From the IMG/VR virus record IMGVR_UViG_2541047868_000004: a stretch of 39,543 nucleotides of DNA; one strand, written 5' to 3'. Source of the DNA: a virus (taxonomy: Duplodnaviria > Heunggongvirae > Uroviricota > Caudoviricetes). Each line of letters opens with the position of its first letter. The stretch's first letter is position 1. The position numbers and the translations under genes are program-made. The notes below the pieces were generated by a model, which was given only the letters and a program-made list of their open reading frames with translations, searched no databases and was not told where the DNA came from. This document shows, piece after piece, positions 1 through 37,856 of the stretch.

Positions 1-1158
1 ATGCTCACCGTTAAGCAGATTGAAGCAGCAAAGCCGAAAGAAAAACCATACCGCCTACTCGATGGTAATGGCCTGTACCTTTATGTCCCTGTGTCAGGGA
101 AAAAGGTATGGCAGCTTCGCTACAAGATTGACGGTAAGGAGAAAATCCTGACCGTAGGAAAATATCCGCTAATGACTTTGCAGGAGGCAAGAGATAAAGC
201 ATGGACCGCGAGGAAAGACATCTCGGTTGGCATCGATCCGGTAAAAGCGAAAAAGGCTTCGTCTAACAACAATTCCTTTAGTGCCATTTACAAGGAATGG
301 TACGAGCACAAGAAGCAAGTCTGGTCAGTAGGCTATGCAACTGAACTTGCCAAAATGTTTGATGACGACATTTTACCCATCATCGGCGGTCTTGAGATTC
401 AGGATATTGAGCCGATGCAACTGCTGGAAGTAATCCGCAGATTTGAAGATCGCGGTGCAATGGAGCGAGCCAACAAAGCCCGCAGAAGATGCGGCGAGGT
501 TTTCCGTTACGCTATTGTCACCGGCAGGGCTAAATATAACCCGGCACCTGACCTTGCTGACGCCATGAAGGGGTACCGCAAGAAGAACTTCCCGTTTCTT
601 CCTGCAGACCAGATCCCGGCATTCAATAAAGCACTGGCAACATTTTCAGGAAGTATCGTATCGCTCATTGCCACCAAGGTTTTACGCTACACTGCCCTAA
701 GAACGAAAGAGCTTCGTTCCATGCTATGGAAGAACGTCGATTTTGAAAACAGAATTATCACCATCGACGCCAATGTGATGAAGGGACGCAAAATTCATGT
801 GGTCCCGATGTCAGACCAGGTGGTTGAACTTCTCACTACGCTAAGCTCAATCACCAAACCAGTATCAGAGTTTGTTTTTGCCGGGCGCAACGATAAGAAG
901 AAGTCAATCTGCGAGAACGCGGTACTGCTTGTGATCAAACAAATCGGCTATGAAGGTCTGGAAAGCGGTCACGGATTCAGGCATGAATTCAGCACGATTA
1001 TGAACGAGCACGAATGGCCTGCTGACGCTATTGAAGTGCAACTGGCACATGCCAACGGCGGATCTGTGCGAGGGATTTACAACCATGCTCAGTATCTCGA
1101 TAAGCGCAGAGAAATGATGCAGTGGTGGGCGGACTGGATTGATGAAAAGGTGGAGTGA
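1..1158 (+). CDS. int: Tyrosine integrase (P4/IntS-like site-specific recombinase)
   Basis: 385-aa ORF starting at the window's first ATG; recalled as near-identical to E. coli IntS-type integrases that sit next to tRNA-Arg argW; catalytic domain at C-terminus. Confidence 0.9.
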   Translation: MLTVKQIEAAKPKEKPYRLLDGNGLYLYVPVSGKKVWQLRYKIDGKEKILTVGKYPLMTLQEARDKAWTARKDISVGIDPVKAKKASSNNNSFSAIYKEWYEHKKQVWSVGYATELAKMFDDDILPIIGGLEIQDIEPMQLLEVIRRFEDRGAMERANKARRRCGEVFRYAIVTGRAKYNPAPDLADAMKGYRKKNFPFLPADQIPAFNKALATFSGSIVSLIATKVLRYTALRTKELRSMLWKNVDFENRIITIDANVMKGRKIHVVPMSDQVVELLTTLSSITKPVSEFVFAGRNDKKKSICENAVLLVIKQIGYEGLESGHGFRHEFSTIMNEHEWPADAIEVQLAHANGGSVRGIYNHAQYLDKRREMMQWWADWIDEKVE

Positions 1159-1294
1159 TCCACCTTAACCACTATCGGATAGTACAAAGCCTTGCAATCC
1201 AGTGCAAAGCTTTGTGTGTTTCAGTTCCCTCACAATCACTATAATGTTCATTACGGTAATCATAAAACTAATGTATAGTTACATATTGTTTTCT

Positions 1295-3469
1295 TCATTT
1301 CACCACCCAACCAGAATTCCAGCGACCTGATTCTTTGATGTAGAGTCTTCCATTTACGATATCTCGATACTCGCTTCCAGGTGTGGCTATTTGTACTCCT
1401 TCAGGATTTCCAGTGCCAGCAATTATACTGTAACTAACGTCTGTGGCTAAATTCCTAACAATGTTAGCAGGAGGGTAAACGTTATCTGCAACAATAATAT
1501 TTGAGCAACTTGCTGTTACATCTACAAAAAACTCATTGCTTATCGAGTTGTGATAACAGTTGTTACTAATCACACCATTTTTAGCAGATGAATCAATACC
1601 TATAACTGCGTCTCCAGCTACAGATTCAAATGAATTTGATGTCACAGTGAATCCGTGGCATTCGCAGTTAATATGGACAGCTCTTCTTCCGTTCATTGCT
1701 GTATTACCTACAATTGATATGTTTCTACTTAACAAAGTTCCTTTGTATTCGCCATCATCCTCAAATATATAGAATATCGCCTTAGCCGTATCAACTTTAT
1801 TGTTGCTTGCAATCACATTAGCAATGTAATTCCCTCTAAGGAATATCCCATTACATGAATCGACTGTGTTTCCAGTGATGGAAACTCCGTCAACCCATCT
1901 CATATCAAGAATGAAGCCATCACAGGACTCAAAATTATTTCCTGATATCCTCCAGTCTCTGTGAAATATTCTACTACCTTCCAATCCGCTCTCAATAAAT
2001 GTTGGTGTAAGGCATGATATCACAGACTTTCCAGTGCAATTTTTAAATGTATTATGATGTATACACACATCTCTTGATGTTTCCCGAAGAGTTGTGCTTA
2101 CTTTCCTCCCGGTAAATATTATTGCTGGATTAGTGAAATTTATAAATGTGTTTGAACCAATGTCAACATTTTCCCACCTAGAAAAGCCACGAATGCCAGA
2201 ATAAGAATTACCATCAAAAGTACAATGGTGGATTTTTATATCAATAACTGGCTGCGCTCCATCTGTTGAACCGTGATTCCCTACGCCAACAGCCCATGAC
2301 GGTAGAGATTCTGACGGTCCAAAATAACAACCAGACACTTTAATGCTAGCGATATTATCATTGCTGGACAATGGTGTTTCAATCTGAATAGCATCTGAAA
2401 AACCTCTGTTACCTGCCCAATCCATAAACCCCATAAAACGGCAGTTTTCAATATTAACATTTCTCACGCGAGACAAGTCTATAGCATGCGCCCCTGAAAC
2501 ATTAAGGAATGTGCAATCCCGAAATATAATCCCATTAGTAAAAACAAATTCAAATATACTGGCTTGGTTTTTGTATATATTGCCATTGTTATTAAAAACA
2601 CCACCAAATACAGATATATTATTACCACATTCGACTTCAGATGTGTATATGCAAGCAAATGTATTTACACCTGTGTCTGAATTATCAAAAGCACGAATAA
2701 TAGTTGCACCTCGTAGATGTAAACTTGTGTTTGAGTATATCATTATTTTTTTTGTTATTTTTATAAGCCATTCACTACGAAAAGTTAAATTCAAACATCC
2801 GTTTATCTTTGCGATATTTAAAGCATTCTGTAAGGCATCGCTATCGTCGCTTACACCATCACCTGTAACCCCAAACCATGACGGTGAAACCTCATTCCCG
2901 TAAACCCTCTTCCACCTTCTACCGTTAAAACCTACAAGAATTGTTCCGTCATTATCTTCTGATGTCGTATCTGTTGGGTCAGCATAGAACACCCCATCAC
3001 CGCCATCGAACAAATTATTTCTTCCATAACAGATTATTTTGTCATTTGTGCCATTATATGAACGTATGTCTGTATAATTACCACCTCCTAAATACGATAC
3101 CCCGTCAATCTGATTTAGTTTCTGCTGAAACATGTCTGGATCATACTTCAGCACATTAGGAAAATAGAATTGCTGCGCACCATACGCATCATAAACAGCC
3201 ATAGAATGGCCTTGCACAGTTACGAACTTGGCAATCTGTCCGTTATATACCGGATATCCAGCAGCGTTAATGATGATTGGTTGAGAAACAGGAACGTGAG
3301 ATCCATCTTCGTTCTCTACATAAACCTGAATCTGGTTTTCAGGATTTACCGGGTCAGTATCAATTTTACCAATATAAATTTTGCCATTGGCTACAGCTTT
3401 AAAAGAACGAGCCATAGTGAAGAGTTGCGAAGGCATACTCACTACAACATTGGCTGTAATGTCTGTCAT
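1295..3469 (-). CDS. Tailspike protein: P22 gp9-like N-terminal head-binding domain plus divergent beta-helix receptor-binding domain
   Basis: 724 aa; first ~110 residues ([11 protein letters not shown]...[15 protein letters not shown]...NVLKYDPD) closely match the P22 tailspike head-binding domain; the remainder is Gly/Asn/Ser-rich, consistent with a parallel beta-helix. Confidence 0.85.
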
Positions 3470-3615: not shown

Positions 3616-3867
3616 ATGGGAAGAGATGACCCGCAATTTAATCTGCGGCTACCTTACGAATTAAAGGAAAAACTAAAACAGCGAGCCAAATCCAATGGCC
3701 GCTCTCTTAATTCAGAATTAGTTCAGATAGTGACTGATGCTGTATCAAAGCCATCCAAAATTTCAGGCTATCGAGACGATGCGGAACGCATCGCTGATGA
3801 GCAGTCCGAACTTGTTAAGAAGATGGTGTTTGATACGCTGAAGGATTTGTACAAAAAACCCACCTGA
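3616..3867 (+). CDS. mnt: Mnt repressor (ribbon-helix-helix, Arc/MetJ family)
   Basis: 83 aa; strong similarity to P22 Mnt including C-terminal ...DAERIADEQSELVKKMVFDTLKDLYKK. Confidence 0.85.
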   Translation: MGRDDPQFNLRLPYELKEKLKQRAKSNGRSLNSELVQIVTDAVSKPSKISGYRDDAERIADEQSELVKKMVFDTLKDLYKKPT

Positions 3868-3883: not shown

Positions 3884-4303
3884 TTAGTCGTGCTTTGTTG
3901 ACGGTATAAGGGATGCATTTGCCTCTTTAGGCTTCAAGGTATACATCCCACCATTAAATGGATCTACAGCAAGCCAACCAATTAACCCACCAAACACAAG
4001 GTTTCCACCAATATACCAACCATTAGCATTGGCTTTGATTGGCAGGGTAACTGGTTCGTACCCATCCTTCTCCATAGTGATCTGGTAGCTCTTTTTGCCA
4101 AAATAACTACCATCTGACTTGGCAAGAGTTACTCCTTGCGGGGTCTTACCTTGCGCAACAATCACGCCTGATTCGTCTTTTACCTTAAAGCTCGCACCGG
4201 AAGGATTGCTGTTCACTTGCACAAGCTGTGTTTCGTCACCAACAATAGTTGCGCACCCAGATAACAATATAGCGCCAGCAACGACGCCGATAATCCTCTT
4301 CAT
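3884..4303 (-). CDS. Putative lipoprotein (moron)
   Basis: 139 aa; signal peptide with lipobox LLSGC; SD GGAAAG upstream; occupies the position where P22 carries sieA. Confidence 0.6.
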   Translation of the reverse strand: MKRIIGVVAGAILLSGCATIVGDETQLVQVNSNPSGASFKVKDESGVIVAQGKTPQGVTLAKSDGSYFGKKSYQITMEKDGYEPVTLPIKANANGWYIGGNLVFGGLIGWLAVDPFNGGMYTLKPKEANASLIPSTKHD

Positions 4304-4437
4304 ATTACTTTCCGTTTTGTTAGAATCAGAAAGATCTTAATAATAAAAAGTATTTTCGTGAAGATATTGTCGATTGAGTTAATAACTCATTTACACCCAA
4401 CAGTGCCATGATGGCAAAGATAAGGAGAGTTAATCAT

Positions 4438-4962
4438 ATGAAAAAATCACTGTTAATTATCCCGCTTCTGCTGGCAGGGTGTGCAAAGGTTAGCGACTAT
4501 CAGGCAAGTTGCGAACAACGCTATCCAAAGCTTAGCGATATGGCTAATTGCCTTGATGCTAGCGTGAAGAGCGACTCACGCATGGCATCAGCACCAACAC
4601 CTAAGTTATATGTCCTTGCTGCGAAGATGCTCGGGCAAGGTGTCGATGATGGCAAGATAAGTGACGCGCAGGCAAGACTTGAGCTTCAGAATCTTTATGT
4701 TCAATTACAAAGCCAAGAACAAGCCCAACAAATAGCACAAAGCCAAGCATTCCAGCAGGCTTTATTGAATTATCAGGCTGTAAACACAATGCAAGCTATC
4801 GAGCAAAAAGCGCGCCAGCCTGTTATAACTCAACCTTACCCAACACGCGTTGACACTTCACAAACTGCAATTCAGGGTTTGGAAATACAGTCACATGCAA
4901 CAGTAGCAGTAACATCAGATAACAATCAGCAAAGGTATCGCCTATGCAGAGGGATACGATAA
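4438..4962 (+). CDS. Putative lipoprotein with Gln-rich central region (moron)
   Basis: ORF 4408..4962; likely start at ATG 4438 (MKKSLLIIPLLLAGC) preceded by AAGGAG; lipobox LLAGC. Confidence 0.55.
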   Translation: MKKSLLIIPLLLAGCAKVSDYQASCEQRYPKLSDMANCLDASVKSDSRMASAPTPKLYVLAAKMLGQGVDDGKISDAQARLELQNLYVQLQSQEQAQQIAQSQAFQQALLNYQAVNTMQAIEQKARQPVITQPYPTRVDTSQTAIQGLEIQSHATVAVTSDNNQQRYRLCRGIR

Positions 4963-5012: not shown

Positions 5013-7010
5013 CTATTCTGACAACGCATCAGACTTAGCCCCCTGAGTAAGGGCGTTAATGGCCTTTTGCGCCTGCTGCATGGCTTTCTCAAACGCTGTT
5101 GATCCGCGTGGGGTGTTTGCCATTCGGAGCATTGCATTTCTGAATGGCTCGCTCTCATAGGCGCGAGTAAGAAGTCCGTAGCTTACTGCTGCGCCAGTTG
5201 TAGCCGGGTTCATTGCCGTCCCATACCCAATTATGAACGGGATAGTTTGCTGCCCTGTGGGTGTTGTTACTGCCGCTTTTGCAGCCTGCTGCGTGGATTG
5301 CAGGTAGTTTTTTAATCCTTTCAGATAAGCAGCGTCCTGCCCCTTAAATGTGATGCCAGTCTGGTTTTGCAGGATGTTAAGCTGCCGAAGGAACTGGTCA
5401 GGGGATCCGCCAGATTTCTCCATCGCCTTTCCAATGATGCCATTGCGCATTTGCGTCCTGCCAACACGACCAACTGAGTTATACAGAGTCTTAATTTCCG
5501 ATTTGTTCTTGCTGAATAGCATGTTGTTGACAACTTCCGGCGTCAGGTCGCCTTTCATGAGAACATTCTTCAGCCTGGTATTCTTTAGTTTCGCCGCTTC
5601 GTCAGCGTAGACGGCATTGGCCTGCTGATATTTACGGAGAGTATCGTTGCCAAGATTCTGACCAATGGCACCATTGATATCGTCGGTCATTGCCTTGTAA
5701 ACGCGCTGAATGGCAGCATCGGAACGGTTTGGTAACACTGGTCGCTCACCTTTCACGTCCATTCTGAACTGGCTGCGCAGGTCGCTTAATTGCTTCAAAT
5801 CCAGATTTACCGGACCATCAGGACCAGCATTGCGAACAAGTTCATCACGATATGATTGAAGTTTTGAAATAGTCTCGTTATCAGCAACCTTACCAAGCTT
5901 CTGCAGGTTAGATATCTCAGTATCAATCTGCTGAATTGCTCGCGCAGGCTGGATATTGACTCCCGCCATTGCATTCTGAACCTGCTCAAGACGGTTCCCT
6001 GCAGCACGACGAATTCCTGATGTTTTCGCTTTAAGGCTGTCAATAACAACAGCTGGATCATACTCACCGAATTTATCAGCAAATCTCTGCACCAACTGGC
6101 TTCTCGCTTCCTGTTGCGTTGCTCTCATTCCGCTTGTGCCAGCCAGGGGGATATTTTCCGCTGTCGTCTGCGCCATTTTCCCGACGCGGGAAGTAGGCTG
6201 TAACAGGTCTGTGGTGTGCAGAGGAACTCCTTCACGCTCTGCAAATCTGATAGCCTGCTGCGCTTCTGGCGCAATAGCACCACTAACGCCACGATAAGCA
6301 GCACCTAATCCACGTCCAGCAGCGTTAATAGCGCCGCCTGCCAGAACGCCAACACCTAAATCGGTGGCGAGGGCTTCCGCATCATCTTTCGCACTATTTG
6401 CAGCAAGTGACCCGACTGCGTTTTCAGCGAGAAGGCGAGTTGCACCCTGAGCGATTCTACCAGCGAGTGTTGGTGCCTGTGTTGCCGCTCTCTCAATGCC
6501 AGCAGGAGTGAGGTAAGGCAATGCCTCAGCAAATACCCTGCCCTCTGTAGTTTGTGGAGTCAGCGCGCCTTGCTGAAGGCCAAAGTCCTGCTCTAATCCC
6601 TGCGTTGTTACTCGTGGCGCTGGGTGATATGTCCCATCGCCAATTCCGAGTTTACCGCCAGCCCAAGCCGCCGCGCTTGTTACAGCATCGGCAACTGATG
6701 CAGGTATGTTTGCCACGTTCACGCCAGCCTGCACCAGTCCGCGACCAGTTTCTTTCACGGCTTCACCAAGATCAGACATAAATCCACTTTGCTGTGGTTG
6801 TTGCTGTGCTACTGGTTGCTGTGTATCCACTGGCTGCACAGATGGCAATGGATAGGCAGCATAGAAAGCTTGCTTAGCCTGCTCTGCATTTTCTCCGGCT
6901 TGCGGGGCCACGACTTCATTGAAGTATTGCTCCTGAGCCTGCGCTTTTTGTTCTGGTGCTAACGCCTGATACTGTGGAGAGGCGATAACATCTTTCCATG
7001 CTTTAGCCAT
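5013..7010 (-). CDS. Ejection (internal virion) protein, P22 gp16-like
   Basis: 665 aa; last gene of the gp7-gp20-gp16 triplet by order; Ala/Gly/Gln-rich low-complexity composition. Confidence 0.7.
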   Translation of the reverse strand: MAKAWKDVIASPQYQALAPEQKAQAQEQYFNEVVAPQAGENAEQAKQAFYAAYPLPSVQPVDTQQPVAQQQPQQSGFMSDLGEAVKETGRGLVQAGVNVANIPASVADAVTSAAAWAGGKLGIGDGTYHPAPRVTTQGLEQDFGLQQGALTPQTTEGRVFAEALPYLTPAGIERAATQAPTLAGRIAQGATRLLAENAVGSLAANSAKDDAEALATDLGVGVLAGGAINAAGRGLGAAYRGVSGAIAPEAQQAIRFAEREGVPLHTTDLLQPTSRVGKMAQTTAENIPLAGTSGMRATQQEARSQLVQRFADKFGEYDPAVVIDSLKAKTSGIRRAAGNRLEQVQNAMAGVNIQPARAIQQIDTEISNLQKLGKVADNETISKLQSYRDELVRNAGPDGPVNLDLKQLSDLRSQFRMDVKGERPVLPNRSDAAIQRVYKAMTDDINGAIGQNLGNDTLRKYQQANAVYADEAAKLKNTRLKNVLMKGDLTPEVVNNMLFSKNKSEIKTLYNSVGRVGRTQMRNGIIGKAMEKSGGSPDQFLRQLNILQNQTGITFKGQDAAYLKGLKNYLQSTQQAAKAAVTTPTGQQTIPFIIGYGTAMNPATTGAAVSYGLLTRAYESEPFRNAMLRMANTPRGSTAFEKAMQQAQKAINALTQGAKSDALSE

Positions 7011-8311
7011 TAATCACCCCATAGTGAAGAAAAATTACTGCCAGTAGTAGGTTGTTGCGCTGGCGTATTCTGTACTGGCTCCTGATAATCAAACTGTTTT
7101 TTAACAGTGCTCAACTTGCTTTCAAGCTGATTTCTAATCTTTCCGATAGAGTCACGAAAAGCCTTTTCACTCATTTTGGGGCTTAGGGCACCAACCGCAT
7201 CGGATAATTTTTTACCCTCAGCATCTGAAAGAGCGCCCATACCCTTCAGGGACTGCACCATAGGAAGGAATGTTTGAGCTTTAAAGGTGTCGAGCCTTGC
7301 TTCAAAGTTAGCCGCATCAGAGCCAGGGACTGTCGGAAACGCTGAGCGAATTCCTACTGCTTTTGAAAGGCCGGGGCTTTGCTCTATCTCGTTGAGAGAA
7401 TCAAGCGCGGTGCTGAACGTATCAACTGCACCCTGAGCGGCGGCCTGCCTGTCAGCGCGGGCTATGTCAGCCTTTTGCCGAACATCTGCCTGTTTCTGTT
7501 TTAGCTCTTCAAGCTTTAACTGATTGCTTTCTCTGGCTATCTGTCTGTCCAGAGCCTTTTCTTGTAATTCTGCTCTTTGTATTTCGCGGGAAAGAGCAGC
7601 ATTCTGTGCGCTGATGTTCTGTCCACGTATCTGGATGTCCTGACCACGCGCTGTTAGTGCTTCTCCAGCCTGATTGCTGCGGATTGTCTCTGTCAGCCTG
7701 CCTCGGTCAATTTCACGACCAGCCATCTTGTCCTGAACATTGAAGTAATCAATCGGACCAAGAGCAGCCATTCCAAGGTGATCAACAAACTCACCAAATC
7801 CTGAAGGGTTCTGCTGATACATCTGAGCAACGCTGTTAGGGTCAACACCGACGCGAGTCAGTTCCTTGGCGTTGTTTTGCAGCCATGATTGCATCGCTTC
7901 TGGAGACGATGCCGCAAGGCGAGCGCCAGCCGCTAAGGTGCCGATAGAATTGCGCTGGTCTTCGTCTGTCCACTTCATACCAGACTGAATCTTCTCTAAT
8001 TGACCAGGATATTTGGTCATCAGATCTCGCACCTGCTGTCGATCACCTGACTGGATGGCTGCCGCATATTCTTTTTGGAATGCAGCATCCGCTTCCTGTT
8101 GCTTTGCGGCTTTATATGTTTGAGCGACACTACCAAGTCCCTGCAACGCCTGAAGGCCGATGTTATTGCGACCTGAACGCTCCATTTCGTTGTTCTGGCG
8201 AATATAGGCCAACGCCTCACTTACATCACTTGCCTTTGGCGCATTTGAGTTTTGCCCACCGATACCAGCAAGAAAACCGCCTGAGTTGATTCCTTGTTGC
8301 CAAGTAGCCAT
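7010..8311 (-). CDS. Ejection protein, P22 gp20-like
   Basis: 433 aa; position between gp7-like and gp16-like; coiled-coil-rich. Confidence 0.65.
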   Translation of the reverse strand: MATWQQGINSGGFLAGIGGQNSNAPKASDVSEALAYIRQNNEMERSGRNNIGLQALQGLGSVAQTYKAAKQQEADAAFQKEYAAAIQSGDRQQVRDLMTKYPGQLEKIQSGMKWTDEDQRNSIGTLAAGARLAASSPEAMQSWLQNNAKELTRVGVDPNSVAQMYQQNPSGFGEFVDHLGMAALGPIDYFNVQDKMAGREIDRGRLTETIRSNQAGEALTARGQDIQIRGQNISAQNAALSREIQRAELQEKALDRQIARESNQLKLEELKQKQADVRQKADIARADRQAAAQGAVDTFSTALDSLNEIEQSPGLSKAVGIRSAFPTVPGSDAANFEARLDTFKAQTFLPMVQSLKGMGALSDAEGKKLSDAVGALSPKMSEKAFRDSIGKIRNQLESKLSTVKKQFDYQEPVQNTPAQQPTTGSNFSSLWGD

Positions 8312-8320
8312 ATTCCCACC

Positions 8321-8995
8321 TTAAAACAATGATCCAAGACCACCGATAATGCCGCCACCAATAGCGCCAACAGCCGTACCTATTCCTGGCACCACAGAGC
8401 CAATCATCGCCCCTGATGCCGCACCGCTCATGGCACCTCCCAAGGCTGATTGCAGTCCTGAAGGTCGGTTAGCATTCGCCGCAGATGCTGCCGCCTGCTG
8501 TTGATACAATTGGCTGACGTTGTTAGCGTAGTTCTGTCCGGCGTTTGCCTGACCGGTAAGAGCACCAAGGCCGATATTTGCCAGATTGTTGTAGTTGTTC
8601 ATCTGACCTGACAGCCAGTTTTGACCGAGTGTAGGTGCGATTGCTGCCAACTGGTTTCCTGTTGCTGTAGAGCCTAATCCACCCGTTGCCTCTGCTGCTG
8701 CCAGACTCTGATAGCGCGCCTGCCCTGCAAGGTCTTTATACTGCTGAGAGTTGTAATACTGGTTAAGCGCCTGACCTTGCCCCTGAAGAGAGGAAAGATT
8801 CTGCAACTGTGATACGTACTGCTGAGCGAGTGGCGTGAACGGTGCAAGGTTCTGCATGTTCGTTTGCCACATTTCGCGTTGCAATTCGATACCCTTTTCA
8901 GTTGCGCGTGCCTGGGCTTTTGAACCGCCATCACTGCCGCCTTTGCAGTAAACAGCTTTGCTGAGGTGCTTATTGGCAATCTGGAAAATTAACAT
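8321..8995 (-). CDS. Ejection protein, P22 gp7-like
   Basis: 224 aa; Gly/Ala/Gln-rich with C-terminal glycine zipper; position after gp14-like; true start may be an internal ATG because the ORF overlaps the upstream gene. Confidence 0.6.
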   Translation of the reverse strand: MLIFQIANKHLSKAVYCKGGSDGGSKAQARATEKGIELQREMWQTNMQNLAPFTPLAQQYVSQLQNLSSLQGQGQALNQYYNSQQYKDLAGQARYQSLAAAEATGGLGSTATGNQLAAIAPTLGQNWLSGQMNNYNNLANIGLGALTGQANAGQNYANNVSQLYQQQAAASAANANRPSGLQSALGGAMSGAASGAMIGSVVPGIGTAVGAIGGGIIGGLGSLF

Positions 8996-9452
8996 TCTTT
9001 AGCTCCTCGTATTTTGAGCGCGGTAACTGATAAATCGTGATGCCTACAGGCTTTCCATTGCTGGTATAAGCATCATCAAGGTGACCAACACGGGTAGCGC
9101 CAAGCAAACGGATAATTGCCCGTCCGTATTTGGTGATGTCAGGAACCATGGTGATGCTGTTAAGGAATGGTGAGTTTTCGAGAAGCCATTTGCAGAATAA
9201 TCGATGCCCTTGCAGTGCATATTCGCCTCGGAATCCGGGGTCGTACACAGCATGGCATTCAACAACGCTATGCCAGAAGTTACGCACTTCATGAACCCCA
9301 GCCAGCACTAATCCTTCGTAGATGCCGAGATATACCGCATCAGGCTTGATGTAGTATTTATCTCCACTGTCTACGATATTTCCCGTGTTTGCCGGGTTGT
9401 TGAGGAATTCTGCAAGCTTCACCGGATTATCGATGAGCTTTATTTCCATCAC
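8970..9452 (-). CDS. Head completion / DNA stabilisation protein, P22 gp14-like
   Basis: 160 aa; position between tail needle and gp7-like, as in P22. Confidence 0.6.
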
Positions 9453-10402
9453 TGCTCCGCAATGATTTTGATGGTTGTGGCAGTAAACGCCGCACCATTC
9501 GACTGAATGGTTAACGTACTGCCATTTGTGGCAAGAAAGCCGTCTTTATCCACGCTGAAGAACGTAGCTAACAGGATGTTATCGGTCGTTGTCGCCGAGT
9601 TGCGGCTGCTTACCAGTGTGTCAGGAACAGAGCCGGAAAAGGTTAGCTGCATTGACCTGTTGGCTGTTCCGCTGGGCCACGTCCCGACGATCGCCAGCTT
9701 GAAGAACAAGGTTTTGTTCTCGTTGAACACAACCATCTTGTTGTTAACGGTGTCGAAGAATGGTGCCAACGTGCCGGATGACGGCGTGAGCGTTTTCAGT
9801 AGGCTAACAAGGTTGGTCGGCGCTGTTGGAATGGTTACTGATACTCCTGAGTAAACAACCTCTGATTTCTTGCGCGTGGTGGCATACTCAAGCGCAGATA
9901 TTCTTGTTGAGTGATCACCAACTGTGCTTTGTAGCGTCGAAATACTTCCCTCTGCCGCTGTGAGCCTGGTATCAAGTGCGTCGATATCAGTTGTATTCTG
10001 AGTTATGCGCGCATCATGGTTTGCTAACTCAGATTCATTGGCAGCAATTCGCGTCTCGTGATCAGCCAGCTCTGTTTCAGCAGCCGTAATCCTTGTTTCA
10101 TGATCTGCAAGAGTGCTTTCCGCTGCTGCAATTCTATTTTCATGATTGATGAGAGTTGCTTCAGCAGCTTCAATTCTGGATTCATGGTCTGCAAGGGTGA
10201 CATCCTGCTCATCATTCTTCACCTGTGCATCATAAGCCCCCTTCCCTGCTTCGTTGGCCTTGTTAGCCACGTTACCAACATCAGTGCCCTGTGCGATAAC
10301 GTAAAGCAGATACGACTGCGAGAAGATATTGCGTGGAAGGACTGATGTGTCGAGTCGTGTAGTCTGAATGATTACCGGCTCATTGAGATTCGAATCAGCC
10401 AT
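9449..10402 (-). CDS. Tail needle protein (P22 gp26-like) with extended C-terminal domain
   Basis: 317 aa; central trimeric coiled-coil heptad repeats ([35 protein letters not shown]...), followed by a ~140-aa Thr/Ser-rich C-terminal domain. Confidence 0.8.
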
Positions 10403-11820
10403 TACTCAATCCTTATCTGGCAGCCAGACAGAGTGACAGGTGACTTCGTGATAACGCGCAATTTGAAGCCGACATTTTTCCTGATTCGCCCGACACGCTT
10501 CCACAAAACGCGTTTGTCGTAAACGAACGGTTCATTCTGCTCAATCATCTGCTCACGCCCGTAATTGATGCCGTCAGTAGTTGCAGAGAGGAACAGGCGG
10601 TCAGCATACTGCGCAACGCCAGTTGAAGATTCAACTTCAAGGTCGAAAACTCTGGCGTTATCCGCTTTGAACAACGGAGTAAACAGCAGGTGTTCCTGTT
10701 GCTTGTCGTACTGGCTGCTGATATCGAATTGCAATTTCCCGGTCACGGACTCCAGCTTATCGCCGCACGTTATCTGATTGCCTTCGTAAATGAAGTCGAT
10801 AGCGCGGTACACATCGTCATACAGGCCTGTTTTCAGCACACACCATTGCGGACCATTGGCACTTGAAGATGCGTCGTACACGAGGACGTGACGCGGAAGA
10901 TGGATAATCAGCAACTCATGCGCATCAAACCGCAACGATTCCATCACGCCATCAGCCAGTTCATCAGCAGTGTAGGAGCGTAGTATTTTCTCAATGCTCG
11001 CGCTGGCGATTGGTGATACCTGACCGGAGCCGATGATATACACAGACGGCGCACCTGTTGCCGGATTGCTGATAAACGCATAGGAATCAGCAAACGGCGT
11101 TTTGCAGTAAGTTCCGGCGATGCCTTTTTGCACCATCAGCGATGGCTGTGCGACATACAAAGCAGCACCAACGGTGGTTGCACCAGTCAGGGAAAAATAC
11201 TCAATCGTCGATGAACCAAAACAGACGATGAAGTCTCGCCATGTTCCGATGCCGATGATGCCGTCAGGCTGAGACTCAGCACGATATTGTGCGCTGTAAC
11301 GGTCAGGATGTGATTCGTCTTCAAGGTCAGTGATGAACCATGAATCAGTACCATCTTTTGACCACGCATAACGCCCACGTAAGCGAGTAATGTCGCGAAC
11401 TGAACCTAACTCATACTGCGTGAATCCACTGTCTGTAGGCCAGTTTGAGACGGTTTTAACCGTGCCATCATAACGATACTCGACCAGTTGACCATTAACG
11501 CCTACAGCCTGTGATGTTCGACCATGCGCCATTGATACGCGACCACTTCCGGCGACGTCACCGACTTCACTTTCTCCTTTGTAGAGCTTCCCACCACACA
11601 CACGATAAACAGCATTCTGCGCCATGTTGTACTCGACGCCGCGCGATACACCGTTCACATCAGAGCGTTTGGCAATGCCCGGGAATGAGCGAAGATATCC
11701 GCTGCTGTTCAGGATTTCTTTGGGTGTAGCCAGCATATTCACTGGCAGATAGTCGATATAGTCGGCATTTCGGAAGTCTTTGCCGACACCTTTCATGAGC
11801 GGAAGTTGCTGAATCGGCAT
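10402..11820 (-). CDS. Tail accessory factor, P22 gp10-like
   Basis: 472 aa (P22 gp10 is the same size class); order gp4-gp10-gp26. Confidence 0.75.
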
Positions 11821-11829
11821 TTATTCACC

Positions 11830-12291
11830 TCACGTACTCGGATCATCTTTCTCGATGTAAAACCGATTCCACGTAAACGCGCTTTTGTTACCACTACCGC
11901 GAGGCATGTCATTTCGCCGCTCAAGTGGTGGTATTTTGGTTAAAGCGATGCAGATTGTCTGATATGCACTGTCAGCAGCGGCAAGGAGAGCGTCTGACGG
12001 CTGAATGACGTTATCCATGCACACTTGCACAGCGAGCTTCAAAGCGACGCCATCATTTGCCCATGCAGGGATACCTGAATCATCGTCAGGTAACGGCATG
12101 ATGCCGTTTTCTGTATCCGCAAACTGATATCCAAGCTCGATACCTTTCGCCTGCCATGCTGCCATCATGTCTTCGAGGTCATTAATGGCATCTTCAATTG
12201 CCTGAGGGTCGGCATCTGTCAACGTGGCATTGGAATACAGCCCGGCTTTTCGTAAAGCCTTAAGAACGAGATCACCCTTCGTTTTCGCCAT
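11830..12291 (-). CDS. Tail accessory factor, P22 gp4-like
   Basis: 153 aa; first gene after coat/small ORF in P22 order. Confidence 0.7.
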   Translation of the reverse strand: MAKTKGDLVLKALRKAGLYSNATLTDADPQAIEDAINDLEDMMAAWQAKGIELGYQFADTENGIMPLPDDDSGIPAWANDGVALKLAVQVCMDNVIQPSDALLAAADSAYQTICIALTKIPPLERRNDMPRGSGNKSAFTWNRFYIEKDDPST

Positions 12292-12460
12292 CTTCTTCCG
12301 CCTTAGCCACTTTTTGCTTCGTTGCGGTTTCTTCAGGAGTTTTTACCCAGCCTTTTTTCAGGTGAGATTTAACTTCTTCGTCATCAACAATGATGTAATC
12401 GACAGCAAACTGACCACAGGTGATCATGTTGCCCGGCTTATAGAGCATTGTTCGTGCCAT
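12272..12460 (-). CDS. Small hypothetical protein between coat and gp4-like genes
   Basis: ORF 12272..12499; likely start at ATG 12460 (MARTMLYKPGN...) preceded by GGGAGAAG; the upstream part of the ORF overlaps a hairpin. Confidence 0.45.
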   Translation of the reverse strand: MARTMLYKPGNMITCGQFAVDYIIVDDEEVKSHLKKGWVKTPEETATKQKVAKAEEDGENEG

Positions 12461-12471
12461 TGTCTTCTCCC

Positions 12472-12497
12472 AATAAAAATGGGGCCGAAGCCCCACC
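12472..12497 (-). terminator. Hairpin plus U-run immediately after coat gene (partial terminator)
   Basis: Minus-strand GGGGCTTCGGCCCC followed by ATTTTTATT. Confidence 0.5.
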
Positions 12498-12501
12498 AAA
12501 A

Positions 12502-13755
12502 TTACTGCCCGGCAATAACGATGCCCGTATATTCAGGAACAAGTACAGAGCAACCGTACAGGGTGGTGAAACGCGCAGTGGTTACACCTTTGATGTGGTC
12601 GAAGGCGTAAGACATGATCAGCGTAGCGCCCTGCTCGGTGGTTGCTGTCATTACTTGTGGACCCTGACCAGTTGGGAACGCCAGCTTGCCGTACATCAGT
12701 TCAACAGAACCATCAGCCCAGAACAGGTTAGCCGGTGCGGCATTTTTGTTGAGAATGGTGATTGCTGCGCTACTTGCCGCATTAGCATCAACGTTTGCAT
12801 ATGGTCGGCTGGCGACATCCGCGTTGTCAGGCGGCAGAATTTTCGGGGAGATAGTTACTGTCGTTCCGCTTACTGCCAGAACGCGGAATACCTGCGGCTG
12901 CCCGGTGGTATCTTTGGTGATCTGGTGTACAGAATTCACCCCTGCGATGGTAAACGCATCGCCAACCTGCAAACCTTCAGCAGATACCGTAATGGTCCCC
13001 TGCCGGTTATCCACTGGCATATCGTTAGCATCTTTCGCTTCAACCTTGTGCGCAGGTGCTGCTGCCAGCGTAATGGAAGTTGCTGTACCCTTCGGAACAC
13101 GACCAGAAATATCGGTCTTGTAGCTATCGAAGGACGCAACCGGAGGGATTTGCGCTTTTTCGTATGCTGTCAGGGTTGCGCCCTGAGCATAGGCACGGTG
13201 ACCAAGCTCGCCAGCAAGGTCTTTGTAGTTGAAGGGGTTCCAGAAAGAGCGACGGTTGATACCCTGAGGTACACCAATCGCCGTCATGGTGGCATCAATA
13301 CCTGCCGCACAGTTCCACAAATCACGGCCCTGTGAACCTGTGGTTGAGTCAGCCATCGTGATCACGTTAGTAGCACGCTGCGTAACCATGGAAATCAGGT
13401 CAGAGTCAATCTGTGCAGCAAGGCGCATACCTGCGGCGCGACCAGCTTCAGTTTTATGTTCCGGGTCACGCATTTCACGCGCATCCAGAGTGTACAGAAT
13501 GTTTTTCGGCTCCTTGAACACAGAAGGAACAAGGCGCTGAACCAGTGCTGTTGGCGTTTTGCCGCTGAGGTCTAGGCCTTCCTCAATGTTCATGTGGTAA
13601 TGCTGCGGACGATACAGAACATCACCTGCTCGCTGCATTGCTGTATCACCGGGACGGAATTTTTTAGCGTTACGGGAAACTACGCAGGCGGCCTCAAAGC
13701 CTTCAACGTAGTTTTCGAACATGATTTCAAGGTCTTTTGCTAATTGGTTAGCCAT
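12502..13755 (-). CDS. Major coat protein (P22 gp5-like, HK97 fold)
   Basis: 417 aa; C-terminal similarity to P22 coat (…NLFWADGSVELMYGK…); position after scaffold. Confidence 0.85.
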   Translation of the reverse strand: MANQLAKDLEIMFENYVEGFEAACVVSRNAKKFRPGDTAMQRAGDVLYRPQHYHMNIEEGLDLSGKTPTALVQRLVPSVFKEPKNILYTLDAREMRDPEHKTEAGRAAGMRLAAQIDSDLISMVTQRATNVITMADSTTGSQGRDLWNCAAGIDATMTAIGVPQGINRRSFWNPFNYKDLAGELGHRAYAQGATLTAYEKAQIPPVASFDSYKTDISGRVPKGTATSITLAAAPAHKVEAKDANDMPVDNRQGTITVSAEGLQVGDAFTIAGVNSVHQITKDTTGQPQVFRVLAVSGTTVTISPKILPPDNADVASRPYANVDANAASSAAITILNKNAAPANLFWADGSVELMYGKLAFPTGQGPQVMTATTEQGATLIMSYAFDHIKGVTTARFTTLYGCSVLVPEYTGIVIAGQ

Positions 13756-13773
13756 GCTTAATGCTCCGATAGG

Positions 13774-14667
13774 TTATTTTTTTGCCTTTTTAGCGGCGAA
13801 ATACGGCGTCCAGTCACCAGTTTCCAGCGCCTTGGCTTTCAGTTTGTCGAGGTTGTTGATTACTGCGCCGTTGCTCCCCTTAACTGTCGGGGTTGTGGCT
13901 GCCGTGGTTTTTGCTTTTGGCATGATTCTGGCCTTCGATTCGATACGTTCCAGCAGACGACCAATTGCTACGGGGTTGGTAGCTTCTGCCAGTTGCTTGC
14001 GCAGTTCAGCGTTGCGACCGAGTGCCAGAACAACGATTTCCGGCTTCTCTGACTCAAACAAGATCGCGTTTTGTGTCTCGATGGGGATTTCCTCGAGTAC
14101 GGCCTGCTCAGCTTCCTGATAGCCAGGAACTTTGAGAGCCTTAACACGTTGCTGATATTTGGATAATCGCTCTTGATAAGCAGCCTGAAGCTCCTGCTCC
14201 TTCTGCTTGCGAGCCATCTCCTGTTGCTGGTACTTTCCGTTATCCTCTGCCCACTTAGCCATGCGTTGCTGATAGATTTCTTCATCGAAACCGATGTCCT
14301 CATCATCCAGTTTTGGCATTCGCGGTGGTTGAGTGATTACCGGCTGCTGCTCGACGGGTTTCTGAGACTGACGCATCAGCTCTTTCAGCTCGCGGTCTTT
14401 CTCTTTAATCGTCTTGCGCAGGTGTTTTACCAGTCCATGCTCTGCGCTATCTTCGCTGGTTGGCGAATCCAGCTTTTCGTCACCAAAGTAGAATTCCTGT
14501 TCTGATTCGTCGTCATCAGTTTCAGTAGCTTCCTCTGCATCATTGCCAGAGGACTCACCGCCATCTTCTGTTTCGACTTCTTCAGCCAGTTCGACATCAT
14601 CAGGAATCTGCTCTGACGCGTCGGTTTCGATTTCAACTTCTGGTGTGTTTTCTGCCATCTGGTCCAT
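13774..14667 (-). CDS. Scaffolding protein (P22 gp8-like)
   Basis: 297 aa; acidic N-terminus, extensive coiled coil, basic C-terminal helix-turn-helix (…KAKALETGDWTPYFAAKKAKK). Confidence 0.8.
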   Translation of the reverse strand: MDQMAENTPEVEIETDASEQIPDDVELAEEVETEDGGESSGNDAEEATETDDDESEQEFYFGDEKLDSPTSEDSAEHGLVKHLRKTIKEKDRELKELMRQSQKPVEQQPVITQPPRMPKLDDEDIGFDEEIYQQRMAKWAEDNGKYQQQEMARKQKEQELQAAYQERLSKYQQRVKALKVPGYQEAEQAVLEEIPIETQNAILFESEKPEIVVLALGRNAELRKQLAEATNPVAIGRLLERIESKARIMPKAKTTAATTPTVKGSNGAVINNLDKLKAKALETGDWTPYFAAKKAKK

Positions 14668-14757
14668 TTGTTACCCCTGTTTACTCGATGTTCAGCCCAT
14701 CGGAAGGCAATAGGGTGCCAGGCCTCATAAAAACAGCCATTGCACGTTATGGGTTAA

Positions 14758-16956
14758 TTACTGCTGTGGTTGTTGCTGGGTTGATTTTTGCAGGATGCTG
14801 CTGATGTCCATGCGTTGTGCATGTCCCTGCGCCTGACTTTTCAGGACAAGCTCTGCATCAGCACGGGCATTGTCTCCTTGCTGTTGCTGGAACTGTCCGA
14901 GCAGTTTCAGAGCCTCACGGATATCAGATTTCTGCTGGCTATCGGCAGATGCGAGGATTTTCACAACATTTGCCGCTGCAACCTGAGCATCAGTCTGTGC
15001 CTGGAATGCTTTAACCTGAATGGCTGCCTGTTCGTTCTGCGCTTTCTGCAATTCAGCCTGACCAGCAAGAAGCTGACCTTGCGCTGCAACCATAGCCGGA
15101 TCTGGCTGACTGGCCTGTTGTTGTTTCGCCTGCTCAACCATCTGCTGCTCTTCTGGCGTTCTCGGCTTGATAACTCCAGACAGAAGCAACTGATTGCGGT
15201 TGTATTCTTTAAGGTCGTCCATCCCTTCGCCATCCATATTGTCGAGAATCATCGACGATACAAGGTCGTGCTTCGGCGTTCCCGGCGGGATAAGTGCCAG
15301 CATGGAAAGTAACGACTTAACAGTTGCATCACGGCGAGTAGCGAACGACTGACCGACATCGACAGTCACTTCATAGTTACCCTGCGAAAGGTCGTTAAGC
15401 GCGATAACCTGCCCTGTCTGACGGTCAACCACTTCACCAGTCATCAGCGCCACGTCATCGCTGCCGTCCTCATTAACGATACGCATCGGCGTATCACTGC
15501 CATAGACCTCACGCGCCATAGAAAGCCACACAACGCCAGCGCGGCGCATGGATTTAGCCATGTTGTCCATGTAGATATAGGACTGCGTGTCCATCCGGTT
15601 AAAAATGCTATCAACGGTATCGGTAGCGACGTTGCTCGGCATGTTCTCAAGCTGCGACGCACCTGTAATTTGCTGAATAGCCGTTCCGGTGTACTGCAAT
15701 AACCCGGCAAGAGCAGGAGGCATTTGTGTCGGAGGTGTCCAGCCAGCAACCTGAGCCTCTGAAATGACCGTTCCGTTTTTGTCCTTCTTGCTGGTCATGG
15801 GAAGAACTGCAGGTCTTTTCTTATTCCTCTCTGCCCAGTGATTCATTAATGGACCGGGAATGAAATCAACATCCACGATAGGAATGCCATCACCGCCAGC
15901 CTGAGTAGCGTTATCTGCAATCATAGAAACCATCAGGTTCTCAAGACGCTGTGCATCCATCGCTTTTGCTGCGTGGCCTTCGATTCGCTCCTGATTATCA
16001 ACAAATGAGCGACGCCCATATACCGGGATGAGAGGAATATGTTCGCCCGGAATACGCTTCGGTTCTTCCAGCCATTCAGCGCCAGACAGAAGACCGCAAT
16101 AAACGCGGCGCTTCTTCACCGTTCGCTCGCCAATCAGTTCGAATGCATCATCGGTCAGCTCGTCGACAATATCTTTGATTTGCTCTTCATCATAGATTGC
16201 CGTTTCTCCGCTGACAGGGTTACGCCATGCTGTGAGCTTCACCTTCTCTATGCGGACTTCGTAGTAACGTCCAACATAGATGGCATCGGGCGTTGACCAG
16301 TCATATTGAGTGCCAGTGTCATCACGAGAAAGGCTTGCCGCGATGGAATCAGGGTATTCAGCCTCGAACGCTTTAGGTGTCATGGAGAACATTTCCAAAG
16401 CCCACATAGCATCAGAGCGGTCATATTGCTTGCTGTCCTGATCGAAGAAGACGCATGTCGCTGGGTCGTAAACCGGGAGAAGGCTTATACGGCGTTGCTC
16501 GTTACTCGGATCCATTTCATCTTCGTAATCGGCACACATGCGGAAACAACCGAATCCGCCCGTTACGGCATCATCAAATGCGTTATCACACGCTTCGCCA
16601 CCGGATGTTTCCTGATAGTCAGCGCGGAATTTGCCGTTCATCTTTTCGGCTAACGCTTCCGATGCCTTGTCATCCTTCGGCCTGAATTTAACGCTGATGC
16701 GATTCTGTCGATACTCGCCAATGATGCGATCACATTCACGGGCAATCTTATTCAGCTCAAAGCGCGGGTAATGCTCAAACCTGCCTTCATCAAATGAGTA
16801 ACCAGCGTTTGTGCTGCCTTCCCACTGTGCGCCGGACACCCGGACGAAACGTTGAGCTTCAATAATCTGCTCACGCATATCCTGCGTTGCTGACCAGGCA
16901 TTATCAAAGTTGCACAGCACCTTGCGATGCCAGTCAGTCATCTTTTTTTCTGCCAT
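14758..16956 (-). CDS. Portal protein (P22 gp1-like)
   Basis: 732 aa; motifs shared with P22 portal (RRVY, GEHIP, PETPEEQQ, DPAMV, long C-terminal Gln-rich barrel helix). Confidence 0.9.
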   Translation of the reverse strand: MAEKKMTDWHRKVLCNFDNAWSATQDMREQIIEAQRFVRVSGAQWEGSTNAGYSFDEGRFEHYPRFELNKIARECDRIIGEYRQNRISVKFRPKDDKASEALAEKMNGKFRADYQETSGGEACDNAFDDAVTGGFGCFRMCADYEDEMDPSNEQRRISLLPVYDPATCVFFDQDSKQYDRSDAMWALEMFSMTPKAFEAEYPDSIAASLSRDDTGTQYDWSTPDAIYVGRYYEVRIEKVKLTAWRNPVSGETAIYDEEQIKDIVDELTDDAFELIGERTVKKRRVYCGLLSGAEWLEEPKRIPGEHIPLIPVYGRRSFVDNQERIEGHAAKAMDAQRLENLMVSMIADNATQAGGDGIPIVDVDFIPGPLMNHWAERNKKRPAVLPMTSKKDKNGTVISEAQVAGWTPPTQMPPALAGLLQYTGTAIQQITGASQLENMPSNVATDTVDSIFNRMDTQSYIYMDNMAKSMRRAGVVWLSMAREVYGSDTPMRIVNEDGSDDVALMTGEVVDRQTGQVIALNDLSQGNYEVTVDVGQSFATRRDATVKSLLSMLALIPPGTPKHDLVSSMILDNMDGEGMDDLKEYNRNQLLLSGVIKPRTPEEQQMVEQAKQQQASQPDPAMVAAQGQLLAGQAELQKAQNEQAAIQVKAFQAQTDAQVAAANVVKILASADSQQKSDIREALKLLGQFQQQQGDNARADAELVLKSQAQGHAQRMDISSILQKSTQQQPQQ

Positions 16957-19381: not shown

Positions 19382-19870
19382 TTAATAGCCATCAGAAGTA
19401 AGCGCTACAGATTTCAACCCCTCAATGTCATCCTTGGACAGGGCGAACCATTCACCGTGCTTTCTCTTTGCGGCAAATTTGCGATGAAGCATGTTTTCAG
19501 TTTCTCTTCCGCCAGGGATCAGGCACTCAAGCTTCAAACAGTCTGGTCCAGAGTTGCCAAGCGATTTGATGCGTTGTGGAATGTTGGATGAATACCCAAT
19601 TTTGGTTAGCCCAGTTTTCTTCGATGACAAAACGTATACCTGAGGAGGTTCTTTTCTCTGGTCTTCCATTACACGTCTCATTGTTGCCATAAGTCCGCCG
19701 TGCATCAGCATTTCAACAAAGAACGCTGACCGAACACCTGACGACTTAAGCATGCCAGAAAATTCACTTGCCAATTCCATTAACTCTGCGATGTTTTCAG
19801 GAACTTTTTGGCAGTTATCTTCCTTGTATAAGGAAATCATTCTTTGAAGCTTTTCTTCTAATTGGTTCAT
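19382..19870 (-). CDS. T5orf172 (GIY-YIG-like) domain protein with N-terminal helical domain (moron)
   Basis: 162 aa; C-terminal motifs VYVL…TGLTKIGYS…RIKSL…LHRKF…GEWFAL typical of T5orf172/MUG113; located between lysis genes and terS. Confidence 0.6.
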   Translation of the reverse strand: MNQLEEKLQRMISLYKEDNCQKVPENIAELMELASEFSGMLKSSGVRSAFFVEMLMHGGLMATMRRVMEDQRKEPPQVYVLSSKKTGLTKIGYSSNIPQRIKSLGNSGPDCLKLECLIPGGRETENMLHRKFAAKRKHGEWFALSKDDIEGLKSVALTSDGY

Positions 19871-21818: not shown

Positions 21819-22331
21819 TTAAACGGTATGATATTTCATTCTGGCGGCCTCAAAAGCCGCAGCGGCAAGTTCGGCAGTATCATGGTATCCAAGGTTAATA
21901 CACTTTCCAGACGCATTAATTCTTGCTCTCCATTTCCCGTACTTAGCATCCCAAGACACGCCACGGTATCCAGATTTATTATTCTTCTGAATTTTCCTGT
22001 TCTGCATATTTTCGGAATGAGTGACAAGACGAAGATTTGATATCCGGTTATCTGTTCTTACCCTGTTGATGTGATCAATAAAACCATCGGGCATGGTGCC
22101 ATAAACAATCAACCATGCCAGTCTGTGAGCAGGGTATGCTTTACCATTAATCATAATCATTAAATACCCATCAGAATTTATTGATGAGCATTTCTTGAAA
22201 GCAAAACGAGAGTTCCATGTCAAAGTGGTCCTCTCTCTTCCCCGCCTCCATCTCCAGTGAAAGTCGCCTGATGATGGATTGTAATCAACAACAGAAAGCA
22301 CCATTTCTGGCGTTAATTTTATTTCTTTCAT
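21819..22331 (-). CDS. Free-standing HNH endonuclease with AP2 DNA-binding domain
   Basis: 170 aa; HNH motif (AHRLAW…DHINR…DNRISNLRLVTHSEN) and AP2 region (SGYRGVSW…KWRARI); between Q/tR-prime and lysis cassette. Confidence 0.8.
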   Translation of the reverse strand: MKEIKLTPEMVLSVVDYNPSSGDFHWRWRRGRERTTLTWNSRFAFKKCSSINSDGYLMIMINGKAYPAHRLAWLIVYGTMPDGFIDHINRVRTDNRISNLRLVTHSENMQNRKIQKNNKSGYRGVSWDAKYGKWRARINASGKCINLGYHDTAELAAAAFEAARMKYHTV

Positions 22332-25938: not shown

Positions 25939-25954
25939 GACTTCCCTCTCACCC

Positions 25955-25986
25955 AAATAAAAAGGCCTGCGATTACCAGCAGGCCT
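25955..25986 (-). terminator. Intrinsic terminator upstream of the ninB-leader/HNH gene
   Basis: Minus-strand AGGCCTGCTGGTAATCGCAGGCCT (8-bp perfect stem) followed by TTTTTATTT. Confidence 0.65.
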
Positions 25987-37840: not shown

Positions 37841-37856
37841 TCTGCAGGGGACACCA
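37841..37856 (+). other. Prophage attachment-site core (attR): duplicated 3' end of tRNA-Arg (argW)
   Basis: TCTGCAGGGGACACCA matches the 3' end of argW (…TTCGATTCCTGCAGGGGACACCA) as recalled from memory; located 73 bp after xis. Confidence 0.6.

Follow-up and report, generated by a model that had tools for sequence, protein, structure and literature searches.

A mosaic tailspike beside the integrase of a P22-like Escherichia coli prophage at argW, with a receptor-binding tip putatively directed to the K2 capsule

The int-tailspike locus

The locus described here belongs to IMG/VR virus record IMGVR_UViG_2541047868_000004 (Caudoviricetes), a stretch of 39,543 nucleotides (nt) that was analyzed in its whole length and is called the window below. 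At its start an integrase gene (int) and a tailspike gene converge on a short spacer that contains a hairpin. The window is an HK620/Sf6-like (Lederbergvirus, P22-like) Escherichia coli prophage integrated at argW, and its tailspike carries, behind a conserved head-binding domain, a receptor-binding part (the tip) that is probably directed to the group-2 K2 capsule. The features of the locus are the following:

1–1158, plus strand: int, coding for a tyrosine integrase of 385 amino acids (aa) of the IntS/HK620/Sf6 type
1184–1215, unstranded: stem-loop of 13 base pairs (bp), defined by folding and by alignment to a feature of HK620
1230–1265, minus strand: second hairpin, AU-rich, in the 3' untranslated region (UTR) of the tailspike gene, from the minus-strand fold (z = -3.55 for 1150–1300)
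1295–3469, minus strand: tailspike gene, 724 aa
3125–3469, minus strand: head-binding domain, aa 1–115 (Pfam PF09008 on aa 1–112, E 2e-66)
2885–3118, minus strand: neck domain, aa ~118–195, common to tailspikes with unrelated beta-helices
1298–2884, minus strand: predicted receptor-binding/enzymatic part, aa ~196–724, a right-handed parallel beta-helix with a short C-terminal domain

Modular organization of the tailspike

The tailspike matches PHROG 2234 ("tail spike protein", E 6e-173), a search of NCBIfam gave no family for it, and public assemblies contain at least 23 contigs that encode exactly the same protein. Its head-binding domain matches aa 1–118 of Sf6 gp14 (E 3e-65) and also P22 gp9, and the similarity to the tailspikes of Sf6, P22 and HK620 stops at aa ~113–118, the DNA similarity to other phages ending at around 3122–3135. 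The neck that follows is modelled as beta-strands with a predicted local distance difference test (pLDDT) score of 53–70, and gave weak matches to 5w5p and 6tgf. It is 49–58% identical in six tailspikes with four other types of receptor-binding domain (RBD), taken from the census described below, and is also present in the Citrobacter tailspikes P0005 and P0006. The helix part is 50–55% identical to the tailspikes of two siphovirus-like contigs (P0003 and P0004), in which it is joined to a different N-terminal adaptor. The GC content of the tailspike gene is 31–42%, versus 45–57% in the DNA nearby. As judged from these matches, the tailspike is a mosaic of three modules, namely head-binding domain, neck and beta-helix. 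The original prediction had described it as a conserved P22-type head-binding domain with a divergent receptor-binding part, and the end of the similarity at aa ~115–118 bears this out.

A census of IMG/VR loci with this head-binding domain was also made, in which 80 loci were kept out of 588 confirmed matches, with domains 95–100% identical. The 73 complete tailspikes that share the domain at this level range from 572 to 981 aa and fall into 55 tip clusters; tip swapping is the rule on this adaptor, with a very large repertoire.

Predicted fold and relatives of the tip

Modelling of aa 114–724 as a monomer with AlphaFold2 produced a right-handed beta-helix with a pLDDT of 86 and a predicted template modelling score of 0.85. 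In Pfam, the tailspike gave a weak match to Beta_helix in addition to Head_binding. When compared to solved structures, the tip showed at most 21% identity, and its best matches were depolymerase-like beta-helices. The best structural match was PfbA of Streptococcus pneumoniae, a host-cell adhesin, unlike the depolymerase proposed here, and the structures listed with the model also included the spike of cyanophage Pam1, AlgE4, Klebsiella K64-1 S2-4, GH110 enzymes and phi29 gp12. The last of these, whose substrate is wall teichoic acid, ends in a C-terminal chaperone that cleaves itself off, a module that is missing from the tip of the window. Structural alignments to the RBDs of P22, Sf6 and HK620 gave only 10–16% identity, and beyond aa ~118 there was no sequence match to the tailspikes of characterized specificity, these being the endorhamnosidases of P22 and Sf6, the endo-N-acetylglucosaminidase of HK620 and the endosialidase of CUS-3. 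The tip of around 600 aa had been described earlier as divergent, and the structure comparison agrees with this, since it gave no full alignment to any characterized tailspike.

No near-identical DNA for the tip was found in 50,697 phage records, and the best match to a GenBank phage protein in tblastn had 27–31% identity. The tip had tblastn matches in 91 phage records, and 48 of these belong to phages of Gram-positive hosts (Bacillus, Staphylococcus or Streptomyces), which fits a teichoic-acid-like substrate. An alignment of 42 sequences of the family showed an asparagine ladder, three invariant residues (H328, Q362 and H399, in the numbering of the full-length protein) and a near-invariant E359; the motifs kept invariant across these homologues suggest a putative active site. 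The tailspike also matches PHROG 8280, labelled "tail spike protein with colanic acid degradation activity" (E 3e-112, residues 1–652 of the protein on positions 1–459 of the 632 of the profile). This label was discounted as a guide to the substrate, because the match runs mostly through the shared N-terminus.

Hosts of the exact tip and their capsule

Among 5,426 complete E. coli genomes, the exact tip (99% identity) was detected in two, MS15236 and E3. MS15236 was isolated from cerebrospinal fluid in Sweden and carries the prophage beside torT, and E3 comes from poultry in China and carries it beside dacD. The O-antigen cluster of MS15236 has wzx and wzy of the O6 family and is interrupted by an insertion sequence (IS), IS1, and that of E3 has wzx of the O18 family; as the hosts differ in this way, the attempt to deduce the specificity of the tip from the O-type was abandoned. 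The region 2 of the kps locus is in turn the same in both, with identical protein accessions, and includes a CDP-glycerol glycerophosphotransferase and an XcbB/CpsF protein. A K1 capsule, considered on account of the cerebrospinal origin of MS15236, was ruled out, since region 2 is of the glycerol-phosphate (K2) type and no neu genes are present. The same region 2 is found in 141 of the 5,426 genomes (2.6%), among them CFT073 and strains whose names give O6:K2:H1 or O2:K2:H1, and on this basis we identify it as K2. The K2 capsule is a galactosyl-glycerol-phosphate polymer, and the gene content of region 2 agrees with such a polymer. The probability that both hosts of the exact tip are K2 by chance is 7e-4.

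MS15236 and E3 are not closely related but have a K2 cassette in common: their identity is 96–97.5% in the his, gsp and colanic-acid genes versus 99.8–100% in regions 2 and 3 of kps. The host flank contained in the window is 100% identical to that of F11, MS15236, 317 and GABEEC10, all of them carriers of the same K2 variant. Region 2 of K2 (positions 8193–15824 of record L095) occurs in two variants, one at least 99% identical to that of MS15236 (13 genomes) and the CFT073 type, at ~98.4% (128 genomes); the rarer one is that of the two tailspike hosts and also of F11 and 317.

Past the tailspike, each of the two other carriers has the same 3' UTR and hairpin, only the last ~60–85 nt of an IntS-type int, and directly after these host DNA, in the positions given here:

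L003 (MS15236), 5915–6134: block of int tail, hairpin and tip, then the torT side
L004 (E3), 5930–6117: the same block, then the dacD side

The block has thus been transferred to prophages that integrate elsewhere. In MS15236, IS1 lies inside the glycosyltransferase region of the O6 cluster (18289–20271 of L089) and an IS100 lies in the tailspike prophage (9826–11627 of L003); the strain may be rough and its prophage defective. A literature search returned nothing on MS15236 or WP_021518010.

Homologous tips in other prophages and in Vectrevirus

Only one other tip type among the 80 census loci is homologous to that of the window. This type, named L019 after its locus, belongs to a tailspike of 692 aa and has an RBD ~31% identical. 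It was found in 24 complete genomes, and at least 17 of the 24 are K2, as judged against the 94 listed of the 141 K2 genomes; O25b:H4-ST131 strains (ST, sequence type) are among them. An unrelated tip used as a control (L016 type, 16 genomes) gave 0 of 16 against the same 94 genomes, and a control tip chosen before it (L013 type) was matched by none of the complete E. coli genomes.

The family extends to lytic phages. The second spike of the Vectrevirus vKMB47 is 48% identical to the L019 tip (E 2e-179) and 27.7% identical to that of the window (E 3e-41). This phage was propagated on CFT073 and gives haloed plaques, and its sibling vKMB14 does not infect CFT073 (PMC11162368). When both phages were compared, their first spikes were 98% identical and their second spikes unrelated. 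In GenBank, vKMB47 has no more than the final 690 nt of its second tailspike annotated (CDS 42854–43543); an open frame of 556 codons (3899–5569 of L101, from vKMB47) spans the second spike in full and can be aligned with the prophage tips over its entire length.

The second spikes of vKMB47 and vB_EcoP-101101UKE1 and the L019-type spike share the RBD family of the window tip over the whole helix and the C-terminus, with the common motifs HA[IV]DL, FSEAIQ, GVGNH and LY[IV]KESG..GW, and the Vectrevirus and L019-type spikes are linked to K2 hosts. The window tip is only 27–31% identical to these tips, whereas the Vectrevirus and L019-type tips are 48% identical to each other. By its divergence, it appears as a separate and rarer lineage, present in 2 complete genomes versus 24.

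The K2 capsule as the probable receptor

These data suggest K2 as the receptor and enzymatic cleavage as the mode of action, and make the tip a candidate depolymerase. The restriction to K2 (2 of 2 hosts of the exact tip and at least 17 of 24 hosts of the homologous one, against a background of 2.6%) comes from a small and partly clonal sample. We consider it probable that the mosaic tailspike of this argW prophage binds and depolymerizes the K2 capsule and not an O-antigen. The low-GC beta-helix cassette would have been acquired horizontally together with its own 3' UTR of 68 nt; the head-binding domain would plug the trimer into the tail, and the beta-helix would bind and depolymerize K2, a teichoic-acid-like polymer, in such a manner that the phage would tunnel through the capsule as CUS-3 does through K1 with its endosialidase tailspike. 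A bolder version, to which we give rather little credence, would make the tip the first temperate P22-like member of a K2-depolymerase family shared with the wall-teichoic-acid phages of Gram-positive bacteria, possibly cleaving phosphodiester rather than glycosidic bonds through the conserved His/Glu/Gln/His residues. The original prediction had proposed a different O-antigen or capsule specificity; the host data favor the capsule part of it, as K2, and speak against a single O-antigen.

Several points weigh against the assignment to K2. The exact tip is present in only two independent hosts with complete genomes, and the idea of K2 was formed after the first of them, in such a way that the fair test is the second host alone, with a chance expectation of 2.6%. 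Most of the L019-type hosts are clonal relatives (ST131 and the AVS series), and the very small hypergeometric p-value therefore overstates their independence; 7 of the 24 genomes fall outside the K2 check. An identity of 27–31% between tips gives no guarantee of a common substrate, and the second spike of vKMB47 could target O6, since CFT073 is O6:K2. Carriage of a prophage is no proof that the present capsule was the receptor used for entry, and the prophage of MS15236 is degraded, with the IS100 insertion and a remnant of int. Finally, no catalytic residues can be assigned in the tip, and the "colanic acid degradation" profile PHROG 8280 matches too, mainly through the N-terminus.

Two other receptors have to be weighed. 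The tip might be an O-antigen-specific endoglycosidase, as those of P22, Sf6 and HK620, directed to one E. coli O-type, with the modification cassette lost or never present. We regard this as unlikely, having in mind that the two hosts of the exact tip have unrelated O clusters (O6 and O18 families) and that the L019-type hosts include O25b strains, K2 being the factor in common; moreover, the capsule of K2 strains blocks O6-specific phages at 37 °C (PMC12488582). The tip might also recognize another widespread glycan, such as colanic acid, the enterobacterial common antigen or an exopolysaccharide, or bind without cleaving, the link to K2 being a coincidence or hitch-hiking with the lineage. 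The PHROG 8280 match, the adhesin PfbA, which has no known enzyme activity, as the closest structure, and the small number of hosts would all fit this explanation, but the profile match comes mostly from the N-terminal domain common to these spikes, with a ubiquitous receptor one would not expect such a concentration of hosts in a class that makes up 2.6% of the genomes while the control tip gives 0 of 16, and the motifs kept in the 42 homologues suggest an active site. It seems to us quite improbable.

The junction between int and the tailspike

The spacer between the convergent genes runs from 1159 to 1294 and measures exactly 136 bp, the length given in the original prediction, with which the coordinates of the open reading frames (ORFs) agree exactly. 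No gtrABC-, oac- or wzy-like gene was found in it, in agreement with the absence of a gtrABC/oac-type cassette that had been noted at this junction. The only ORF in the spacer is a frame of 42 codons with a GTG start (1202–1330); it was considered as a remnant similar to hyp24 of phage Kapi1 and rejected as spurious, since the Kapi1 spacer is not homologous and the frame overlaps the stop codon of the tailspike. In the window as a whole, no ORF with multiple transmembrane segments was detected except the host gene cscB (38296–39543), and Pfam scans of 30 other ORFs gave no acyltransferase or glycosyltransferase domains.

For comparison, the junction was examined in the 41 of the 80 census loci that have the same integrase downstream. 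In 24 of them the junction is direct, without a cassette (the gap being at most ~200 bp in 22 and ~480 bp in two), 12 have an ORF with multiple transmembrane segments, three of these being gtrABC-like triplets, and five have other content. The expectation of a cassette at this place is legitimate, as Sf6 carries oac, HK620 an "O-antigen modification protein" and CUS-3 neuO, but their absence is the commonest state in the census. The empty junction is real and is the commonest arrangement; it does not stand as a special feature of this prophage, and it was already documented for phage Kapi1. With the capsule as the receptor, the lack of an O-antigen conversion cassette would be unremarkable.

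The hairpin in the spacer

The nested hairpin that had been noticed in the spacer at around 1186–1220 was recovered as a stable stem-loop at 1184–1215, in which A1184–A1196 pairs with T1203–T1215 around the loop ATCCAG. Thirteen pairs make up the stem, in which a single C/A mismatch of the plus strand turns into a G-U pair on the minus strand, with folding energies of -14.9 kcal/mol in the int sense (plus) and -17.9 kcal/mol in the tailspike sense (minus). It aligns base for base with the feature annotated in HK620 as "terminator for prophage excision transcript". Downstream of this type of int the pairing is kept in 84% of cells over 24 variants, versus 25–47% with slid partners; a few compensatory changes are included, and one lineage has a wholly different stem at the equivalent place. 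The first 68 nt after int are present in 853 E. coli genomes, whatever comes next. The hairpin belongs to the integrase module, since in HK620, Sf6-like and CUS-3-like genomes it adjoins int with another gene placed before the tailspike.

Its most likely role is the termination of the int/excision transcript. In the int sense the stem is followed by GUGUGUUUCAGUU in the window and by more U-rich tails in the relatives, and T-rich tails such as GTGTGTCTCAGTTTTGT are conserved on this side only. The hairpin may also stop or stabilize the convergent tailspike transcript, as a putative secondary effect. The original prediction went further and proposed a bidirectional terminator, of which the int-sense half agrees with the HK620 annotation. 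That it truly works as an intrinsic terminator in both directions, for int as well as for the late operon with the tailspike, appears doubtful to us. The location between convergent genes would fit, as would the perfect stem and the lower energy of the tailspike-sense RNA, the minus-strand fold of the spacer (z = -3.55) and the fact that both the mismatch in the window and the HK620 variant are G-U pairs on the tailspike-sense strand. However, the sequence after the stem on that strand, ACUAUCCGAUAG, lacks a U-run, the T-rich tails are confined to the other side, a scan for consensus terminators called none in the spacer, and in the genomes mentioned above another gene separates the same hairpin from the tailspike, which assigns it to the int module. 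An origin of the hairpin as a tRNA-derived attP core was dropped, as the annotation of HK620 and Sf6 puts this core upstream of int.

The second hairpin (1230–1265) lies in a segment, 1227–1294, that MS15236 and E3 have kept next to this tailspike, whereas HK620, Sf6 and Kapi1 lack it. From this distribution, it appears to travel with the receptor-binding cassette.

The prophage and its other genes

The integrase has the Pfam domains Arm-DNA-bind_3, Phage_int_M and Phage_integrase, and its gene is 96–97% identical at the nt level to those of HK620, Sf6 and CUS-3. With int, most of the window is 95–97% identical in DNA to HK620, Sf6, CUS-3 and other Lederbergviruses of E. coli. The contigs that encode the exact tailspike run past int into yfdC-mlaA-fadL, which is the neighborhood of argW. 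In HK620, Sf6 and CUS-3 the attP/attL core is annotated upstream of int, so that int and the tailspike stay adjacent in the prophage. The opposite end of the window is bacterial, and three ORFs of the phage carry endonuclease-type domains:

37842–39543, unstranded: host DNA on the attR side of argW, containing cscB and a DUF4942 fragment
21819–22331, 25351–25956 and 19382–19870, minus strand: HNH_3 + AP2 and T5orf172/MUG113 ORFs

The host segment matches at 100% the empty argW sites of F11, MS15236, 317, GABEEC10 and others, and the product of cscB is a LacY-family symporter encoded by an ORF of 415 aa. The window begins at the ATG of int and ends at the start codon of cscB, with attR near 37842; its ends thus coincide with gene boundaries, the intact argW and attL, the latter upstream of int, lie just outside, and ARAGORN found no complete tRNA within it.

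The tailspike gene stands at the end of the late operon, beside the mnt/immI region and convergent with int, in the same order as in HK620, Sf6 and CUS-3; its neighbors are a Mnt/Arc ORF (3616–3867) and, upstream, injection genes of the P22 gp16/gp20/gp7 type. Between mnt and the gp16-type gene there are two lipoprotein-like ORFs, 3884–4303 (minus strand, 139 aa) and 4408–4962 (plus strand, 184 aa), each with a signal peptide and a Cys, in a position that matches P22 sieA. They match PHROGs 6823 and 6067, both of unknown function, with a weak PEGA-domain match for the product of 139 aa, and may be superinfection-exclusion or moron genes. Two ORFs with HNH_3 and AP2 domains are found in the nin/Q region, and a T5orf172/MUG113 (GIY-YIG-like) ORF just beyond the lysis genes, before those of the terminase; all of these are probably insertions of the homing-endonuclease type.

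Relation to known phages

The closest parallel is CUS-3, a P22-like Lederbergvirus of E. coli K1 that is integrated at the same argW site with the same type of integrase (97% identical in nt), has the order attL-int-neuO-endosialidase tailspike with convergent genes, and joins a P22-type head-binding domain to a tip that is specific for the capsule rather than for the O-antigen. Its tip, an endosialidase for polysialic acid, has no similarity to the beta-helix of the window, and its junction holds the capsule O-acetyltransferase gene neuO, whereas that of the window is empty and no modification gene was found in the window. HK620 and Sf6, together with P22, share with the window the integrase, the head-binding domain and the overall beta-helix fold, and HK620 also the hairpin next to int; the place between int and the tailspike, empty in the window, is occupied in HK620 by its O-antigen modification gene and in Sf6 by oac. 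The substrates of these tailspikes are the O-antigens O18A1 for HK620, S. flexneri Y for Sf6 and Salmonella O4, O9 and O1 for P22. Kapi1, a P22-like prophage at argW in E. coli MP1, resembles the window in that its int adjoins the tailspike (spacer of 171 bp) with no recognizable gtr or oac genes, but its spacer and tailspike tip are unrelated to those described here. Kapi1 uses and modifies the O-antigen (bioRxiv 10.1101/2021.04.09.439263).

Implications

That tailspikes are modular and that nothing need lie between int and the tailspike is textbook knowledge, and the probable terminator of int was already known; what is new is a concrete and testable assignment of the receptor to K2. This capsule is one of the main ones in extraintestinal pathogenic E. 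coli from urinary and bloodstream infections, being found in F11, in CFT073/ST73 and in some ST131 strains. At 37 °C it is a barrier to other phages, and the known E. coli K specificities listed in the same work do not include K2 (PMC12488582). Our search for an E. coli K2-specific depolymerase in the literature, made in an incomplete library, found none. If the assignment is true, the two divergent lineages of K2-linked tips, found on temperate P22-like and lytic Vectrevirus phages, would be candidate decapsulating enzymes for K2 strains, and the tips could serve as markers to predict the host range of phages from genomes. The prophage would then be, beside CUS-3, a second capsule-specific P22-like prophage, the K2 counterpart to that of K1.

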